Virus record (IMG/VR): IMGVR_UViG_3300032401_000578
Coordinates: 1-57,906 of that record
From: a virus
Taxonomy: Duplodnaviria; Caudoviricetes
Reading direction: 5' to 3' (one strand)
DNA: 57,906 nt
In this document: positions 1,529 to 56,547 of the stretch, piece by piece
Layout: every line of letters begins with the position of its first letter
Position numbering within the stretch: position 1 is the stretch's first letter
The notes under the pieces: model-generated
Seen by the model: the letters and a program-made list of their open reading frames with translations, nothing else
What the model was told of the DNA's origin: nothing
Databases searched by the model: none
Translations under genes and position numbers: made by a program

Positions 1529-2660
1529 ACGCATCCGGTGGCTGTACGACGAGTTCGACCAAGTCTTCGTGTCGTTCTCCGGCGGGAAAGACTCGACGGT
1601 CTGCCTTCATCTGGCGTTGCAAGTGGCGGCGGAACGGGGGCGGCTCCCTTTGCCCGTGCTGTTCATCGACCAAGAGGCCGAGTGGCAGATGGCTATCGAC
1701 TACATCCGGACGGTGATGTCGGACCCGCGAGTCAAGCCGTTGTGGCTCCAAGTTCCCTTCAAGATATTCAACGCGACATCCGGGACGGACCCTTGGCTGC
1801 AATGTTGGGAGCCGCGCAAGACGTGGATCCGGGAGCGTGAGCCGGAAAGCTATCACGAGAACGTCTTCGGGACGGACCGCTTCGGCGAGATGTTCAACGC
1901 GGCGATCAATTACTTCGCAGGCGGGAAACGGGCGGCAAACATCGGCGGGATGCGGTGCGAGGAAAGCCCGTCCCGGCTCCGGGGGCTGACGCACGGGAAC
2001 ACGTACAAGGGACAAGCGTGGGGGAAGGTGCTGGATCGGAAACGGGAGCAGTTCACGTTCTACCCGATTTACGACTGGTCGCTTTCGGATGTCTGGAAGG
2101 CGATTCATGACGAGGCATGGAAGTACTGCCCGCTCTACGACTTCCAGTATCGCTACGGAATTGCGCCGCGAGACATGCGAGTCTCAAACGTGCATCACGA
2201 GACGGCTGTCAAGAATCTGTTCTATCTCCAAGAGGTGGAGCCGGAGACGTGGGAACGGATCGTCGGGCGATTGTCGGGGGTCAACACGGTTGGCAAGCTG
2301 CGGGACGATATGCTTTGCCCGAAGGAACTGCCGTTCATGTTCACTTCGTGGGCGGAGTATCGGGACTATCTGGTTGAAAATCTGGTCACGGAGGAGGCGG
2401 ACAGGGAAGACTTTCGGAAACTCTGGAAGCGGGGCGAGGGCAAGTACGATGCGGAGACGACCGAAAAGCTGCACCGGATGCAGGTCAAGGCTGTCCTCGC
2501 GAACGACCATTGGGGGGTGAAGATCGGTTCTTTCGAGAACAGTCATCAGAAGAACGTCGTGGGCGGGGTGGCGAACGACCGCTATCACGAACGCCAAGCG
2601 GCCAAACGGAAAGACCGGGAAACGACAAAGCTCTTGATCGGAAAGCGGGTGGAAGGATGA
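1485..2660 (+). CDS. PAPS-reductase-family (PP-loop) protein, IbrA/YbdN-like
   Basis: VSFSGGKDS PP-loop, FIDQEAEW, GMRCEES..R, YPIYDWS..DVW, MRVS. Confidence 0.9.
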   Translation: MKLYLQKTVYEAALERIRWLYDEFDQVFVSFSGGKDSTVCLHLALQVAAERGRLPLPVLFIDQEAEWQMAIDYIRTVMSDPRVKPLWLQVPFKIFNATSGTDPWLQCWEPRKTWIREREPESYHENVFGTDRFGEMFNAAINYFAGGKRAANIGGMRCEESPSRLRGLTHGNTYKGQAWGKVLDRKREQFTFYPIYDWSLSDVWKAIHDEAWKYCPLYDFQYRYGIAPRDMRVSNVHHETAVKNLFYLQEVEPETWERIVGRLSGVNTVGKLRDDMLCPKELPFMFTSWAEYRDYLVENLVTEEADREDFRKLWKRGEGKYDAETTEKLHRMQVKAVLANDHWGVKIGSFENSHQKNVVGGVANDRYHERQAAKRKDRETTKLLIGKRVEG

Positions 2661-3322
2661 CGTGGCAAACGGAACTAGCGGCGGCGTGCGACGCGGCCCC
2701 GGACAAGACGGCGTTCATCGCTGAGGCGAGGGAGATTCTTCACGGGTCGAGTCCGCTCAAGGCGCAACCGGTGGACATCGTGCGGTGGGTACCGATAGGG
2801 ATGGTGGACCCGAACGACTACAACCCGAACTCGGTGGCGAAGTCGGAGATGAAGCTGCTCTACACGTCGATTCTGCACGACGGCTACACGCAGCCGATTG
2901 TCACGATCCAAAACCCGGACACGGGACGATTCTGCATCGTAGACGGATTTCACCGGTACTTCACAGCGTTCTCGAATCCGGACATTCTGGCCCGAAACCT
3001 CGGACGGGTTCCGGTCGTGGTGATTGCGAAGGAAATCAACGACCGGATGGCTTCGACGGTTCGGCACAATCGGGCGAGGGGGAAACACTCGATTACAGGG
3101 ATGGCGTCGATGGTGTTCACGATGCTGGAGAACGGCTGGGAAGACGCGGCAATCTGCAATGAACTCGGGATGGAGCCGGAGGAACTACTCAAGCTGAAAC
3201 ACGTTACCGGATTTTCAAAGCTGTTCGCGAACGTGGAGTACCGGAGAGCGTGGGTCACGGATCAACAGGTAGCAATCCGCAAGAAGCACGAAAGGGAGGT
3301 CGCGGCTGGAACTCTGGGGTGA
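2657..3322 (+). CDS. ParB-like nuclease domain protein, IbrB/YbdM-like
   Basis: NDYNPNSVA..EMKLL..SI..DGYTQPIV, IVDGFHRY, RMASTVRHNRARGKH; ATGA coupled to the upstream gene. Confidence 0.9.
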   Translation: MTWQTELAAACDAAPDKTAFIAEAREILHGSSPLKAQPVDIVRWVPIGMVDPNDYNPNSVAKSEMKLLYTSILHDGYTQPIVTIQNPDTGRFCIVDGFHRYFTAFSNPDILARNLGRVPVVVIAKEINDRMASTVRHNRARGKHSITGMASMVFTMLENGWEDAAICNELGMEPEELLKLKHVTGFSKLFANVEYRRAWVTDQQVAIRKKHEREVAAGTLG

Positions 3323-3385: not shown

Positions 3386-4153
3386 ATGGCGGAAGCCGAG
3401 GCTGAGAAACCCAAGGGGAAACGTGGGCGGAAACCGGGGAGGCAACCCGGAAAAGTCTACTGTCATGCAAACGGCAACACGTGCGGGCGGTTCCCGGCGA
3501 AGGGGCGAACGACGTGCAAGGCTCACGGTGGTGGAGCCAAGGTCGGTTCGGACTCGCCTTCGTACAAGGGGAAGAACTTCTCCCGTCACATGCCGAAACG
3601 GTTGGGGCAACTCTTCGATGAAGCGATGCTCGACCCGGACTTCCTGAACCAGCGGCGGCGGATCGCGCAGATGTCGGCCCGGTGCGAAGAGCTGTGGGTT
3701 CGTATCTCGGCGGAGGAGCGGGCGGCCAATTGGGCGGAGGCCAAGAAGGTCTGGTCAGCCATGTGGGCGGCGAACGCGGCTTACTCGGTGGCCAGCAAGG
3801 CTGGGGACGCGGCGGAGGTGTCGCGGCAAGCCGGGGTCATGGCGGACACGAAGGCGGAGCTGGAGACGATGCTCGGCGTCGGAGCCGGGGAGCAGTTCGC
3901 GTGGGAAGAGTTCCGGAAGGCGTTGGACACGACGCGGCGACTGATTGAGTCGGAGCGGCGTCGCGAGGTAGAGTCGCAACAGGTGATCTCGATGAGTCTT
4001 GTCACGATGCTGGTGGACCGGCTGGCCGATATTGTGAGGCGAAATGTCACGAACAAGGCTGAACTTCGGACAATCTCGGTCGAGTTCACTCGGGAACTTG
4101 GTCAGCAGGTTGGGACTCAGATTGATGCCGGAGTTGGAGCCGGAGCCGGGTGA
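3386..4153 (+). CDS. Probable terminase small subunit (HGG-motif protein)
   Basis: C..C..CKAHGG motif; directly upstream of and overlapping terL. Confidence 0.6.
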   Translation: MAEAEAEKPKGKRGRKPGRQPGKVYCHANGNTCGRFPAKGRTTCKAHGGGAKVGSDSPSYKGKNFSRHMPKRLGQLFDEAMLDPDFLNQRRRIAQMSARCEELWVRISAEERAANWAEAKKVWSAMWAANAAYSVASKAGDAAEVSRQAGVMADTKAELETMLGVGAGEQFAWEEFRKALDTTRRLIESERRREVESQQVISMSLVTMLVDRLADIVRRNVTNKAELRTISVEFTRELGQQVGTQIDAGVGAGAG

Positions 4154-6455
4154 CGAGGCGGAGCCGACGGACGACGCGGTAGACTTCGAGGATCTCTACC
4201 CGGCTCAACCCGGCCCGCAGCGGATTTTCCGGAAGTCGCGGGCGGACATCGCCATCTACGGCGGGGCGGCTGGCGGCGGGAAGTCGTGGTCGCTGCTGAC
4301 GGAACCGCTGCAACACGTGACGAACGGAAACTTCGGGGCCGTGATCTTCCGGCGGACAAACCCGGAGATCACGAACGAAGGCGGGTTGTGGGATGAGTCC
4401 GTCAAGCTGTACCCGCTTCTACAGGCTGAACAGGCGGGGCATTCGTGGCGGTTCGACTCCGGGGCGTCAATCACGTTCGGAGCGATCCAGCTCGAAAAGG
4501 ACGTCTTTAAATGGAAGTCGTCGCAAATCTGTCTCATGTGCGTCGCAAGCGGAACGCCGATTGTGATGGCAGATGGGAGTCGGGTGGCGGTCGATGACGT
4601 GCAGGAGGGCGACTACGTGATGACTCTGGCGGGGCCGAGAAGAATCACAAGAAAGCACGACCCACGAATAGCGAAATGCGTCACGGCGACGATTGTGTCA
4701 GAAACGGGTGACGTCGTCGGATCGCAAACGCATCCCGAAGACCATCCTATTTTGACGGACAGGGGATGGGAGTCGTTCGCTTCGATTGCCAGACAATCCC
4801 GATCCGCTCGCAAACCGACTTCGCGACCTGCGAAGAGATGCCGGTCGCGGCGGCAAAGTCGCGATACCCGATTGACGGGTCAGAAGCGGCGACCCGGACG
4901 GCGGACTCCACTTCTGGAGAGTGCGGGTTGCAAGGGCGTCTGCGTGTCGTCAGCAGATGCGGGAAGCGGTTCCGTAAGGTCTGGTGGTGGACTCCGAGCA
5001 GCGTGGCGGCCTCAAGCGTGGAGCGTCCAAGTAGTGCTGCACGAACGGACTCTTCTGGAAGATTCACGGCATGGTCATCTTCAAATCCGTGAAGATTCTT
5101 GTGGTCAACATCCGTCATCAACTGGAGGTTGCTCGGGTCATTGTTTTGGCGATTCCGGTCAATGTGATGAACAACCTCAAGCCCGCTTAGGTAACGGCCG
5201 AGAACTTTTTCCATCACAAGCCGATGTTGGCGGACGAAACCCCGTTTTGTCACGGCCGGGTGGTGTGGGGCGTATTCGAGAACATACCCAAAAGCGTCGA
5301 TTTGAGTTCGACCACCCATACACGAAGGAACGACGCTTGGCTTCGGAGGACGTCCAGCTTTGTTCATGCGAATTGACTCCAGTTGGGGAACGGACGGTAT
5401 TTGACCTGACAATCGAGGGCGAAAACCATTATGTGAGTTCGTTCGGTTTCGTCAATCAAAATTGTTTCGACGAATTGACATCGTTCACGGAGAAGCAATT
5501 CTGGTACATGCTGAGCCGGAACCGGTCAACGTGCGGCATCAAGCCCTACGTCCGGGCAACGACGAACCCGGACGCGGACTCTTGGGTCGCGACGCTCGTG
5601 GCGTGGTGGGTCGACGAAGAGACTGGCAATCCGATCCCGGAGCGGGCTGGCGTGCTCAGATGGTTTGTCCGGGTGGACGACGTCTTGGTGTGGGGCGACT
5701 CGGCCGACGAACTGCGGCGGCGGCATCCGGGATCGTTCCCGAAATCGTTCACGTTCATCCCGGCGAAGCTGGAGGACAATCCGGCCCTTGAGCGGCTCGA
5801 CCCCGGCTACCGGGCGAATCTGATGGCGTTGCCAACGGTCGAACGGATGCGGCTCCTCGGGGGAAACTGGAAGGTCCGGCTGACGGGCGGCATGTTCTTC
5901 CGGGCGGGAAGTATCGGCGTGCTGGATTGGGAGCCGACGGCGACGCATATCGTGAGGGGCTGGGACTTGGCGGCGTTGGAAGGGAGCGGCGACTGGACGG
6001 CCGGTCTCAAGATGGGAGTTCAAGGGAACGGCCGGTACGTGATTCTCGACCTGATCGCGGGGCAGTGGGAAACGGGCGGCCGTGATGCGAGGATCAAACA
6101 GGCGGCGGACATGGACGGGATTAGCGTGCATCAACGGCTGCCGCAAGATCCGGGGCAGGCCGGGAAGTCGCAGGTTGCCCACTTCGCCCGGATGCTGAAT
6201 GGCTGCAATTGGTCGAGCGGCCCGGTGATCGGAAACAAGGCGACGCGGGCGACGCGGTTCGCGGCGGCTGTCAATTCGGGGCAAGTGGACATGGTGAGAG
6301 CCGACTGGAACAAGCGGCTGCTCGACCGGCTCGACCGGTTCCCGGACTCGTCCGTACCCGACGACGAGGTGGACGCTTGCGCCGACGCCTTCAACACGAT
6401 TCTCGACGGGTGCTGGATCTCGGACGAAACGGAAGTGTCGTCAGTGTCGGTGTAA
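4125..6455 (+). CDS. terL: Terminase large subunit, intein-containing
   Basis: Walker A YGGAAGGGKS; Walker B ICLM|CFDE split by the intein; RATTNP; nuclease motifs WDLAA, QDPGQAGK, DDEVDA. Confidence 0.95.
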   Translation: MPELEPEPGDEAEPTDDAVDFEDLYPAQPGPQRIFRKSRADIAIYGGAAGGGKSWSLLTEPLQHVTNGNFGAVIFRRTNPEITNEGGLWDESVKLYPLLQAEQAGHSWRFDSGASITFGAIQLEKDVFKWKSSQICLMCVASGTPIVMADGSRVAVDDVQEGDYVMTLAGPRRITRKHDPRIAKCVTATIVSETGDVVGSQTHPEDHPILTDRGWESFASIARQSRSARKPTSRPAKRCRSRRQSRDTRLTGQKRRPGRRTPLLESAGCKGVCVSSADAGSGSVRSGGGLRAAWRPQAWSVQVVLHERTLLEDSRHGHLQIREDSCGQHPSSTGGCSGHCFGDSGQCDEQPQARLGNGRELFPSQADVGGRNPVLSRPGGVGRIREHTQKRRFEFDHPYTKERRLASEDVQLCSCELTPVGERTVFDLTIEGENHYVSSFGFVNQNCFDELTSFTEKQFWYMLSRNRSTCGIKPYVRATTNPDADSWVATLVAWWVDEETGNPIPERAGVLRWFVRVDDVLVWGDSADELRRRHPGSFPKSFTFIPAKLEDNPALERLDPGYRANLMALPTVERMRLLGGNWKVRLTGGMFFRAGSIGVLDWEPTATHIVRGWDLAALEGSGDWTAGLKMGVQGNGRYVILDLIAGQWETGGRDARIKQAADMDGISVHQRLPQDPGQAGKSQVAHFARMLNGCNWSSGPVIGNKATRATRFAAAVNSGQVDMVRADWNKRLLDRLDRFPDSSVPDDEVDACADAFNTILDGCWISDETEVSSVSV
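4747..5367 (-). CDS. HNH homing endonuclease (206 aa) encoded antisense within the intein
   Basis: GYV...HP...GFVRQHRLVMEKVLGRYL...EVVHHIDRNRQNNDPSNLQLM (HNH); two HTH-like C-terminal segments; GGAG about 10 nt upstream of the ATG. Confidence 0.9.
   Translation of the reverse strand: MNKAGRPPKPSVVPSCMGGRTQIDAFGYVLEYAPHHPAVTKRGFVRQHRLVMEKVLGRYLSGLEVVHHIDRNRQNNDPSNLQLMTDVDHKNLHGFEDDHAVNLPEESVRAALLGRSTLEAATLLGVHHQTLRNRFPHLLTTRRRPCNPHSPEVESAVRVAASDPSIGYRDFAAATGISSQVAKSVCERIGIVWQSKRTTPIPCPSK
5428..5455 (-). promoter_or_regulatory. Sigma70-like promoter for the antisense HNH gene
   Basis: Minus strand reads TTGACG-16 nt-CATAAT, about 60 nt upstream of the HNH ATG. Confidence 0.6.
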
Positions 6456-39445: not shown

Positions 39446-39477
39446 TGTTGACGTTGCGGCGGTCGGTCGATTATAAA
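39409..39477 (+). promoter_or_regulatory. Repeated early promoter cassette, copy 1
   Basis: ATTCCAAAAAAA tract; TTGACG at 39448; TATAAA at 39472. Confidence 0.65.
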
Positions 39478-41088: not shown

Positions 41089-41476
41089 TCGGCCGGAGAT
41101 CCGGGCGGAGTACAAGCGGGCGAACCCGGAGTGCGAGCTGTCGGGGCTGCTGTGGATGCTCGGGATCGTGCGGGAGTCGCGGACATCCGACACGCTGGAG
41201 ATTCATCACTTGGTCGGCGGGTCGGGCCGACGTGATGCTGTGGCAAATCTGGTGACGGTCAACCGGGTGGTACACAGATGGCTCGAAGCGTACGTCGCCG
41301 ACGGCCGGATTGCGTGCTTGGCGGTCAAGGCGGTCAAGGGCGAGGTGAACCCGGATGAGTTCCGGGAACTGACGGGGCAGTATTTGAGCGGGTGGCTGGC
41401 CTGTCATCCTCCGAAAGACGGACGACTGGAAGCAATTTGGAGGACGCTGTGCAAGGCGTACCCATGCGACGGATGA
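41072..41476 (+). CDS. HNH-like nuclease domain protein
   Basis: CE...LEIHHL.GG..R.D...NLVTV...VH. Confidence 0.6.
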   Translation: MARKNDRPEIRAEYKRANPECELSGLLWMLGIVRESRTSDTLEIHHLVGGSGRRDAVANLVTVNRVVHRWLEAYVADGRIACLAVKAVKGEVNPDEFRELTGQYLSGWLACHPPKDGRLEAIWRTLCKAYPCDG

Positions 41477-41543
41477 CTATTTTCGAGAATCGTAAAAATC
41501 GCGGGCGAATTGTGTTGACTTGCGGGGCCGGGTGGACGATACT
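41476..41543 (+). promoter_or_regulatory. Repeated early promoter cassette, copy 2
   Basis: ACTATT...A-tract; TTGACT(41515)-17 nt-GATACT(41538). Confidence 0.75.
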
Positions 41544-41606
41544 CCTCTTGTCGGACGCGACGTGCGAACGACTGGCCCGAACGGACGACGAACAGGAGCG
41601 ACGAAA

Positions 41607-41933
41607 ATGGCTGTCAATTACACTGTCGAGCTGGATAACAATGGCCGGGTGAAGTCGGTCGAGATCGGCGAACAGAGCGGAAACGGGATCGGCGAACTGA
41701 GTGCGTGGCGGACGGCCAGTGATGGGACGTGCTTCGTCGTGTCGCCGTCTTGCACGTGGGCGATCCGGTCGCTCGGGTGGCTAATCCGGGAGTGCGGAGA
41801 ACACGACAGCGTGGCGGACTTGGTCGAGCTGCTCGGCGAGTCGATGGAGGACGCGGCGGCAACGGCGGCGGAGACAGACGGCTTCGAGCGTGCCGCTGAG
41901 GAACGCGAAGCGATGGCGGTGATCGTGCGGTGA
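41607..41933 (+). CDS. Hypothetical protein
   Basis: ACGGACGACGAA plus AGGAG RBS. Confidence 0.7.
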   Translation: MAVNYTVELDNNGRVKSVEIGEQSGNGIGELSAWRTASDGTCFVVSPSCTWAIRSLGWLIRECGEHDSVADLVELLGESMEDAAATAAETDGFERAAEEREAMAVIVR

Positions 41934-52038: not shown

Positions 52039-52198
52039 ATACTTCGACCGGCTGATGGCGGAGCCGGTCTGGTGGCTCGAAAAGAACGCAGAGCGGCCGT
52101 CGGTCGGGATGACGAGGATTCACGTTCTGTTGTCCCGGCTGGCGGTGCGAAAGAAACTATTTCCACAATTCCGAAAAAACGCTGGCGAATTGCGTTGA
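52025..52198 (+). CDS. Small hypothetical protein (57 aa, not in the ORF track)
   Basis: GTG start after AAAGG; MTKREYFDRLMAEPVWWLEK...; stop lies inside the -35 box of the next promoter. Confidence 0.45.
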   Translation: MTKREYFDRLMAEPVWWLEKNAERPSVGMTRIHVLLSRLAVRKKLFPQFRKNAGELR

Positions 52199-52223
52199 CA
52201 ATCGGGACGGCGGAGACGATACT
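52156..52223 (+). promoter_or_regulatory. Repeated early promoter cassette, copy 3
   Basis: ACTATT...ATTCCGAAAAAA; TTGACA(52195)-17 nt-GATACT(52218). Confidence 0.8.
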
Positions 52224-52286
52224 ACACGCAACGCGGTTGACGTGACTGCGAATCCCGGACGGACGACGAACTGAGGAGCTGAGACA

Positions 52287-52439
52287 ATGGTTAAAACACT
52301 TGCGGAAGCGGTTGTGGTTGCGATGAGAACCTTCGCAGCGGAACCTTCGGCTATCGAGGTCGAGATCGCGATGGTCTTCGGTTCGGTTTGGATCGGCCGG
52401 GACGGGGAAATCTACGACCGGCCACGGTTCGCCAACTGA
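52287..52439 (+). CDS. Small hypothetical protein (50 aa, not in the ORF track)
   Basis: ACGGACGACGAA plus GAGGAG RBS; MVKTLAEAVVVAMRTF... Confidence 0.65.
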   Translation: MVKTLAEAVVVAMRTFAAEPSAIEVEIAMVFGSVWIGRDGEIYDRPRFAN

Positions 52440-53418: not shown

Positions 53419-53535
53419 ATGTCGATTCAACTGCCGACGGTACACTTGAACGGGACGAGCAAGGCGGAGCTGCTGGACACGCTGGGCGAGGCGTCGGAAG
53501 CCTTGGACGCGGCCTACCGGGCGTTGTGCCGTTGA
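53419..53535 (+). pseudogene. Probably truncated small gene (MSIQLPTVHLNGTS...)
   Basis: 38 aa; its stop codon is part of the TTGACA -35 box of the next gene's promoter. Confidence 0.4.
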
Positions 53536-54579: not shown

Positions 54580-54908
54580 ACGAGAACGCAAAATTACCGC
54601 TGAACGTGCATCACTTCGTCCGCGATGGCATGGACAGGACTGACACCGGGCTGCTGGAGATCGAAGAACTGAACGAGATGGTCAACGACGCTCTGGCGAA
54701 CGGAGATCGCGGGACGGCCGAGAAGATCGCGACGGAGGCGGCGGCGATGATGTCGCTGGCACCGGAGGCGTGGGCGGTGCTGGAGCGAATAGAGCTTGTC
54801 CGGCGTGGGTTCGGCGAGTTCTCCGGCACGGAACTCTTCGAGGTCGTGAACGATCTGTTGAAGCGGCGGGACACGGCGGCTGGTGGGTCCGTAAAGCTAT
54901 TCCGCTGA
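54576..54908 (+). CDS. Hypothetical protein
   Basis: ATGA coupling. Confidence 0.6.
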   Translation: MNENAKLPLNVHHFVRDGMDRTDTGLLEIEELNEMVNDALANGDRGTAEKIATEAAAMMSLAPEAWAVLERIELVRRGFGEFSGTELFEVVNDLLKRRDTAAGGSVKLFR

Positions 54909-54963
54909 TTCCAAAAAAAACGGACGAGTTGAGATTGACGAACGGACGCCGAGAGCCGATACT
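54896..54963 (+). promoter_or_regulatory. Repeated early promoter cassette, copy 4
   Basis: CTATT...ATTCCAAAAAAAA; TTGACG(54935)-17 nt-GATACT(54958). Confidence 0.8.
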
Positions 54964-55026
54964 CCCTACATCGCAACCGGACGCCGGTTGCAACGAACCC
55001 CAAACGGACGACGAAAGGGCTGAACG

Positions 55027-55452
55027 ATGATTGCAATCGGAACTAAGATTCTGGCGAATGACGGCTACTCGAAACGACTCGGCGAAGTCGTCAATCACGA
55101 GACGAACAGGTGGGGCGACTGGCACGTCGTAGCGGTCGGTGACGGCCGGGAGATGGTCGGGACGATTGACGGCCCGGACGCCAAAGGGATCGGCTGGAAG
55201 GTCGCGACGGAGGCCGAGATCGCGAGGGCGGCCCGGTACGCTGCGGCGGAAGAGGCGGAGCAGAGCCCGAAAACATTCCGGAACGCCAACTTCGACGGAA
55301 AGCGGAACTACAACTGCACGAACATTGTCGCCTGCCAAGGCGGGGCGGCTCCGGATGGCGTGTGGGTGGAGTGCGGCCCGGAGATCATCGCGGAGATGAA
55401 GCTGAGCCCGCTGTGGATTCAAGGTGGGGTCCGGTTCTTCGGATGGTTGTGA
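55027..55452 (+). CDS. Hypothetical protein
   Basis: ACGGACGACGAAAGGG leader. Confidence 0.7.
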   Translation: MIAIGTKILANDGYSKRLGEVVNHETNRWGDWHVVAVGDGREMVGTIDGPDAKGIGWKVATEAEIARAARYAAAEEAEQSPKTFRNANFDGKRNYNCTNIVACQGGAAPDGVWVECGPEIIAEMKLSPLWIQGGVRFFGWL

Positions 55453-55948: not shown

Positions 55949-56155
55949 ATGACTGACCGAGATGCAATCGAAGCGAACGTGCGAAACAAAATCAAAGACC
56001 TGAAAACGGCGAAAGTGACGGCGATGTCGGTGGACAATCTTCGCCAGATCACGAGGACGGTTGGGGTGTTCTGTGCGGTCGCGGCCTACCCGGCGATGTT
56101 CCGGGAGGTGGCAATTGACGCCGGGAAAGCCCTTGGGTTCAGCGTGACGGATTGA
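55949..56155 (+). CDS. Hypothetical protein
   Basis: AAGGGG RBS. Confidence 0.6.
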   Translation: MTDRDAIEANVRNKIKDLKTAKVTAMSVDNLRQITRTVGVFCAVAAYPAMFREVAIDAGKALGFSVTD

Positions 56156-56164
56156 GTCGAAAGA

Positions 56165-56232
56165 ACTATTCCCAACAATCCGAAAAAAACGTGCGGGTTG
56201 ATGTGGACAAACGAACGCGGGGAGACGATACT
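56165..56232 (+). promoter_or_regulatory. Repeated early promoter cassette, copy 5
   Basis: ACTATT...ATCCGAAAAAAA; TGGACA(56204)-17 nt-GATACT(56227). Confidence 0.75.
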
Positions 56233-56292
56233 CCCTACACGCAACCAACGCGGCTGCGACAAACCGAACGGACGACGAACGGAGGCTTGATC

Positions 56293-56547
56293 ATGATGAC
56301 ACGGCGCAACGAATACAAACTGTCGGCCGCCCTTCCTCTTGTGGCTAAGCACGGCTTCACGGTGGTCTCGGTCGGGATGGACTACGCGACCTGCTCCGGC
56401 AAGGTGGTTGACGACCGGTTGGTGTCGCTTCATCAGGACTGGACCCCCAAGGGGGCGGAGTTCGTCCGGGTCCAACTGACGCGGGGCAAGTGGGCCGGGC
56501 AAAACATCGGGTCGATTCACAAGACCGGGTTCGACTGGCGGAAATGA
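56293..56547 (+). CDS. Hypothetical protein
   Basis: ACGGACGACGAA plus GGAGG. Confidence 0.7.
   Translation: MMTRRNEYKLSAALPLVAKHGFTVVSVGMDYATCSGKVVDDRLVSLHQDWTPKGAEFVRVQLTRGKWAGQNIGSIHKTGFDWRK

Follow-up and report, generated by a model that had tools for sequence, protein, structure and literature searches.

The element considered here lies in the large terminase gene (terL) of IMG/VR virus record IMGVR_UViG_3300032401_000578, a 57,906-base record (completeness ~94%; G+C 62%; GC skew positive throughout) that is referred to over its whole length as the window. This gene contains an intein, and nested on the opposite strand of the intein's DNA is an HNH homing-endonuclease gene that is probably transcribed from a host-type promoter, with an accompanying ribosome-binding site (RBS), located inside the codons for the C-terminal splicing region of the intein. 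The reading of these motifs as promoter and RBS is well supported by comparative evidence. What is firmly established is the presence and position of the motifs and, in HNH-bearing relatives, that selection maintains them at synonymous sites. All other large genes in the window lie on the opposite strand, and the HNH gene therefore needs start signals of its own. A first-pass annotation of this DNA had placed such signals on the minus strand, as TTGACG (5455..5450), 16 nt and CATAAT (5433..5428) over the codons of intein blocks F and G, with GGAG about 10 nt before the HNH ATG. Reading of the letters confirms these coordinates, sets the -10-like hexamer over H462-Y463-V464 and the -35-like hexamer over F469-V470-N471 (terL codons numbered from 4044), and gives an exact distance of 9 nt for the GGAG core.

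Within the window, TTGACG-16-CATAAT matches at 10/12 positions and has the features expected of a sigma-70 site, namely a spacing of 16-18 nt (here 5434..5449, 16 nt) and a -10 whose second letter is A and whose sixth is T. It lies 60 nt upstream of the HNH ATG and is the best site listed by the promoter scan in the first 20 kb. Sites of at least 10/12 number 3 in the whole window, against 0.84 expected from 100 dinucleotide shuffles, and the chance of such a site is ~7e-4 per given 100-nt stretch of one strand. The A at position 2 of the -10 corresponds to the wobble base of the Tyr codon TAT (Y463), a codon that makes up 17% of Tyr codons in the window and 1/10 in the terL ORF; likewise, the Shine-Dalgarno (SD) core GGAG is laid over an ACT codon (T445) that accounts for 14% of Thr codons in the window. 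When the amino acids are held fixed and synonymous codons are redrawn, the window site has P = 0.022 or 0.017 by position weight matrix (PWM) score in two runs, and GGAG arises with a null frequency of 0.096. The leader is predicted to fold at -13 kcal/mol, compared with a shuffle mean of -18.9 (z +1.88), and the predicted 92-nt 5' region is less well folded than 196/200 shuffles. An RBS-sequestering hairpin of the I-TevI style was sought as well and not found in the HNH leader, which is less structured than shuffled sequence.

A search with the HNH protein recovered 31 viral loci, with full-length relatives in nine, and in 9/9 of these the antisense HNH is nested in an ORF of 743-1194 residues; genome and metagenome scans supplied additional loci, and both nesting and frame relation are identical in 23/23 loci, HNH codon position 1 standing opposite terL codon position 1. 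A profile search with the intein N-domain returned 80 viral loci, which were sorted into those with an antisense HNH (28), those with the C-terminal splicing region and no HNH (nine, comprising mini-inteins of ~158-199 residues and three more distant cases), those with a same-strand HNH relative (seven) and those with neither (36). Filtering and removal of near-duplicates at 90% identity left a comparison set of 26 HNH-bearing inteins (38-70% G+C) and six HNH-less ones. Left out were L036, whose contig ends upstream, L043, which is cut inside the -35, L107, whose C-part match is too short, and the near-duplicates L056 and L078. No C-terminal splicing region was detected in L085-L088, L095, L099 and L125, which may have a split or fractured arrangement.

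Most of the 26 HNH-bearing inteins carry TTGAyA-16-(TGa)TATA(A/G)T over the same codons as the window, and one of them, L001/L050, has a perfect TTGACA-16-TATAAT, likewise 60 nt before its ATG. Where the HNH start is nearer to the intein/C-extein junction (layout B: L003, L037, L039, L044, L046 and L002), the -10 takes the form TGcTATAAT or TACAAT and is written over the block G codons G-I-I-A; in L008 (66% G+C), the -35 TTGACA falls over V-S-S instead of V-N. Since the boxes of L008 and of layout B sit over different residues, the position of the motif tracks the HNH start and not particular amino acids. In L002 and L037, the -10-like box ends just 8 nt before the HNH ATG and an SD is absent, which suggests that their HNH mRNAs are leaderless.

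For a statistical comparison, the terL amino acids were kept and synonymous codons were redrawn from the usage of each locus, over 50 codons upstream of the HNH ATG in a run of 12 loci and over 44 codons around the junction in a run of 26. In the smaller run, P values were 0.022 for the window, 0.022 for L001, 0.059 for L002, 0.32 for L003, 0.037 for L004, 0.003 for L008, 0.010 for L009, 0.50 for L033, 0.005 for L037, 0.26 for L039, 0.006 for L044 and 0.033 for L046, with a Fisher combination of 2.5e-8 by PWM and 7.6e-4 by plain match count; the plain count, which leaves several loci with P>0.8, is the weaker because it takes no account of the TG extension or of spacers of 15/19 nt. The synonymous-codon null is calibrated by control windows from the same terL ORFs, of which 3/116 have P<0.05 and 1/116 has P<0.01. 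Scores in these control windows average 5.4 with a maximum of 12.27, and a PWM score of 12 is reached by 1/116 of them, as opposed to 9/12 of the windows upstream of the HNH. In the larger run, P<0.05 was obtained for 12/26 HNH-bearing loci (Fisher 5.2e-11) and for 0/6 HNH-less relatives (Fisher 0.88), the observed scores of the two groups differing at 2.5e-4 by the Mann-Whitney test, and the mean score in the junction region was 13.9 on the antisense strand versus 8.0 on the sense strand. At the level of a single base, the wobble position that supplies the second letter of the -10 (TAT or TTT, for the Tyr or Phe of block F) is T in 17/19 layout-A loci versus 9.4 expected (P 5e-5; L064, with Ser in place of His, excluded), and in 1/6 HNH-less relatives (Fisher 0.002), that one being a genome of 30% G+C. 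An SD core (GGAG, GAGG or AGGA) is found 3-11 nt before the chosen ATG in 16/25 loci versus 3.4 expected (P 6e-11). Shared descent was considered as a source of this conservation and rejected: the wobble positions of the spacer hold ~0 bits across relatives, so that synonymous sites have reached saturation and the conservation of the boxes is not accounted for by common ancestry. The first-pass annotation had made its promoter stand or fall with conservation in homologs that retain the HNH, and the motifs come through this comparison; at synonymous positions, HNH-bearing relatives retain the -35, the -10 and the RBS, a conservation that HNH-less relatives do not share. On this evidence, the boxes are conserved beyond the demands of the overlapping coding sequence.

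However, several points weigh against a promoter at this site. The window box falls below the family consensus (C at position 1 of the -10, G at position 6 of the -35, and TG extension absent), and by plain match count it has P = 0.054. Individually, 14/26 HNH-bearing loci are non-significant and five or six have poor boxes, with low scores in L033 (8.4), L081 (8.6), L039 (8.9-9.9), L053 (9.3) and L062 (9.5); TAC occupies the key codon in L053 and L033. The last of these (L033, the same as L035) is a terL intein with the HNH from a bacterial bin, on a 2.9-kb contig assigned to a Chlamydiae metagenome-assembled genome; it also lacks any start codon ahead of its conserved N-terminus, and it may represent either a copy in decay or phage sequence placed in the wrong bin. 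The scoring matrix relies on Escherichia coli frequencies and is not that of the host. Fisher combinations overstate independence among loci that are related, and the HNH-less controls number six, two of them distant. Finally, the amino acids alone raise the mean of the antisense null to 9.7, compared with 5.4 in control windows.

This last point, together with near-motifs at the same place in HNH-less relatives (TTGATG-16-TGTAGT and TTGATG-16-TGAAAT) and the fact that the window by itself yields just P 0.02-0.05, is what would be expected if the conserved H-Y-I-T and V-N merely happened to spell the motifs, the HNH then being transcribed from elsewhere on the minus strand or silent. Such a by-product is nevertheless unlikely, as the wobble-level excess is confined to HNH-bearing loci, the motif persists over different amino acids, an SD core co-occurs with it, and 26 distinct loci have kept an intact, conserved HNH ORF whereas the product read from this DNA in the sense frame shows no such conservation. 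It could also be proposed that the promoter serves chiefly to produce an antisense RNA controlling terL or intein expression, with translation of the HNH being secondary. Any such transcript would be fully complementary to ~0.7 kb of terL mRNA, and a scan of the minus strand from 4747 to 4000 listed no terminator-like site downstream of the HNH stop. (The terminator-like site at 5312..5296, inside the HNH gene, was taken as chance, 6 such sites having been found versus 16.3 expected.) This proposal is judged quite improbable, given that the SD core and an ATG at the right distance are themselves maintained at synonymous sites and that the promoter signal is absent in relatives that keep terL and the intein without the HNH.

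Least probable of all, although compatible with a promoter such that both could hold, is the possibility that the conserved junction DNA is a protein-binding or recombination signal, for example an operator or half-site of the nuclease, as for I-TevI, or a co-conversion tract. T4 intron nucleases are described as binding operators that overlap their own promoters and resemble homing sites (PMC2988022), and the present site lies 10-35 nt from the intein/C-extein junction. On the other side, the letters conserved are those of TTGACA and TATAAT with a spacer of 16-18 nt whose own letters are not conserved, and in layout B it is other codons that carry the box, which still precedes the ATG.

The promoter reading allows the construction of a model for expression of the nuclease. 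In this model, the antisense of F-V-N would provide the -35, that of H-Y-V the -10 and that of T-P the GGAG of the HNH gene. Transcription by host RNA polymerase carrying the primary sigma factor would begin near 5421, yielding first an unstructured leader of ~54 nt and then the HNH mRNA, and the resulting nuclease would cut the intein-less terL alleles of co-infecting phages. We infer the start near 5421, an early timing and interference of the HNH mRNA with terL mRNA; early expression in particular is suggested by the host-type look of the promoter. As had been pointed out from the sequence at the outset, the HNH transcript would be antisense to terL mRNA, and this is borne out as the geometry of any transcript from the predicted promoter. 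A more far-reaching proposal is that, across this clade of inteins, some 30 codons are doubly selected, for splicing blocks F and G on one strand and for a working host-type promoter on the other, that the nuclease is transcribed autonomously and probably early, that its mRNA is complementary to the late terL message, and that the promoter decays after loss of the nuclease; as a whole, this is put forward tentatively and may well not hold in every part.

The nuclease ORF matches Pfam HNH_3 at 43.1 bits (cut-off 24.8; E 3.2e-11). Residues H67, H68, N76, N80 and H93 are invariant in 7/7 sequences, and the C-terminal stretch LLGVHHQTLRNRF is conserved as well. It is predicted to be a homing nuclease, and site-specific cutting of the intein-less allele is proposed. 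The polypeptide of the terL intein does not include its homing nuclease, which has a gene of its own on the opposite strand. The ATG of the HNH gene stands over terL codons S441/C442 and its stop over the P and I codons of D-H-P-I-L; the latter overlap, with block B, had been noticed in the first-pass annotation, and the gene indeed overlaps intein coding sequence at its start as well as at its end (Table 1). A TTG at 5412 was tried as an alternative start and rejected in favour of the ATG at 5367, as it is without an SD, lies ~9 nt from the predicted transcription start and is accompanied by upstream residues that are not conserved. A further observation concerns the sense-frame H-P-Y-T (5301-5330, plus strand), which is kept in 10/12 precursors and stands exactly opposite S-C-x-G-G of the HNH (residues ~13-22); both strands look constrained over these bases.

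Table 1. Coordinates of terL, its intein, the antisense HNH gene with its predicted start signals, and the intergenic modules (positions in the window).
Feature	Position	Strand	Remarks
terL precursor ORF	4044..6455	+	803 aa; maximal ORF, predicted start; N-extein to 4538, C-extein from 5463
Intein	4539..5462	+	308 codons, C166 to N473; from boundary residues and insertion pattern
HNH_3 homing-endonuclease gene (predicted)	4747..5367	-	206 codons and stop; antisense, nested between intein blocks B and F
HNH start codon ATG	5365..5367	-	over terL codons S441/C442
HNH stop TAG	4747..4749	-	over P and I codons of D-H-P-I-L (4740..4754)
-35-like hexamer TTGACG	5450..5455	-	over F469 (ttC), V470 (GTC), N471 (AAt), block G; family consensus aTTGACa
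-10-like hexamer CATAAT	5428..5433	-	over H462 (cAT), Y463 (TAT), V464 (Gtg), block F
Predicted transcription start	5419..5423	-	~7 nt after -10; leader ~54 nt; from usual sigma-70 geometry
Shine-Dalgarno core GGAG	5377..5380	-	9 nt before ATG; over T445 (aCT), P446 (CCa)
Intergenic modules	41465-41640, 52145-52320, 54885-55060, 56154-56329	+	four repeats; at 41515, 52195, 54935, 56204

The host gene is identified as the large terminase by Pfam Terminase_6N (3.7e-17) and Terminase_6C (9.9e-11). The terL genes of Rhizobium phages, which lack an intein, align to the two exteins as two pieces at 54% identity, ~440 codons in the record being set against 733 query residues spanned, which indicates an in-frame insertion in the present gene. 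The insertion point is directly before the Walker-B-like motif F-D-E-L-T. The intein begins with Cys1 (C166), carries the block B His in D-H-P-I-L and ends in V-N-Q-N followed by C474; Cys1 and the block B His are invariant in 12/12 relatives (12 precursors aligned), and the penultimate His is absent, with Gln at that position. No curated intein or Hint profile scored above threshold (Pfam Hom_end_hint reached 19.3 bits for a cut-off of 32.1), and Hom_end_hint apart, no further intein model was found at E<=0.01; because no curated profile passes threshold, the assignment is based on the boundary residues and the insertion pattern. Splicing is presumed from the essential role of terL and from the open sense frame. 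In one viral contig (L002 / L073), terL has two inteins, of which the one at Walker B holds the antisense HNH, while the other, directly behind the P-loop GGGK, contains a LAGLIDADG-like domain in frame. In the window, the terminase genes are immediately preceded by an ORF at 2510-3322 (plus strand) that gives a weak match to a ParB N-terminal domain (23 bits, below the cut-off of 26.3).

That a promoter of host type could operate in this phage is made plausible by four intergenic modules with TTGACx-17-GATACT elsewhere in the window. In each, ACTATT, an A-tract and GAATTG precede T(T/G)GACx and, 17 nt further on, GATACT, after which come a conserved ACGGACGACGAA leader and then an SD and ATG; the ACGGACGACGAA leader pattern has 7 matches versus 0.12 expected. 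A fifth site, TTGACA-16-GATAAT, lies at 53532, and possibly another at 39469. The four modules probably represent early or middle promoters of the phage itself that have a leader element in common, and a primary-sigma-like consensus thus seems to be in use in this phage. The RBS style of the modules is GGAG with a spacing of 8-10 nt, which the RBS of the HNH gene matches.

Inteins with an antisense homing-endonuclease ORF have been described, with LAGLIDADG nucleases in Synechocystis dnaX and a Chloroflexus SpoVR-like protein, and with LAGLIDADG or VSR-like nucleases in inteins of terL, minor capsid and other genes of actinophages (Gosselin, Arsenault, Gogarten, bioRxiv 10.1101/2025.01.02.630785, citing Gorbalenya 1998 and Gogarten 2002). 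The terL intein of the window shares with these the placement of the nuclease ORF antisense between splicing blocks and the open sense frame, and terL is itself among the genes hosting them. The origin proposed in that preprint, in which a free-standing nuclease gene invades an intein, is likened to the present case. However, the nuclease here is HNH_3 and not LAGLIDADG or VSR-like, and the preprint lists HNH as an in-frame type only. Its main text has 0 occurrences of the word "promoter", and expression of the antisense genes is not addressed there. A literature search on antisense intein nucleases turned up no analysis of their promoters. In the accounts cited here, antisense intein nucleases are published for LAGLIDADG and VSR-like types and not for HNH, and none with promoter analysis.

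Parts of the arrangement are known from other systems. As reported for them, T4 intron nucleases, like the HNH here, have a promoter of their own embedded in the transcription unit of the host gene, and their timing of expression differs from that of the host gene, as is proposed for the present nuclease. However, the T4 cases involve the same strand, non-coding intron RNA, phage-specific promoters and an RBS-sequestering hairpin, whereas here the nuclease is on the opposite strand, the promoter, of host-type consensus, lies in protein-coding splicing codons and an unstructured leader is predicted. In the fractured genes described by Dassa et al. (2009, PMC2677866), a free-standing nuclease gene likewise occupies the nuclease position of an intein and has its own 5' regulatory signals; there, all three ORFs share a strand, the host gene is split into two parts, and leader hairpins and T4-late-type elements are present, whereas the host ORF of the window is continuous. 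The ShiLan methylase insertion (Arsenault et al., 2025, PMC11855218) likewise has an HNH overprinted on an in-frame insertion in a phage gene; it is described as being on the same strand, with no splicing domain and no detectable RBS, and leaderless translation has been proposed. The HNH gene of the window differs in being antisense, in sitting in a recognisable intein and in having a predicted promoter and SD.

The expression of antisense or out-of-frame intein nucleases is an open point in recent papers, and HNH-bearing terL inteins offer a testable answer: a promoter and RBS in splicing-block codons, kept at wobble positions only where the nuclease is present. Should this be correct, a synonymous change of TAT to TAC at the block F Tyr should silence the nuclease and leave the intein protein unchanged, and such a change would provide a handle on whether the timing of the nuclease matters for homing. 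If the double selection of these codons is also true, expression of nuclease and terminase would be separated in time or opposed. The HNH-bearing terL intein may also serve as a compact natural example of a promoter overprinted on coding sequence.

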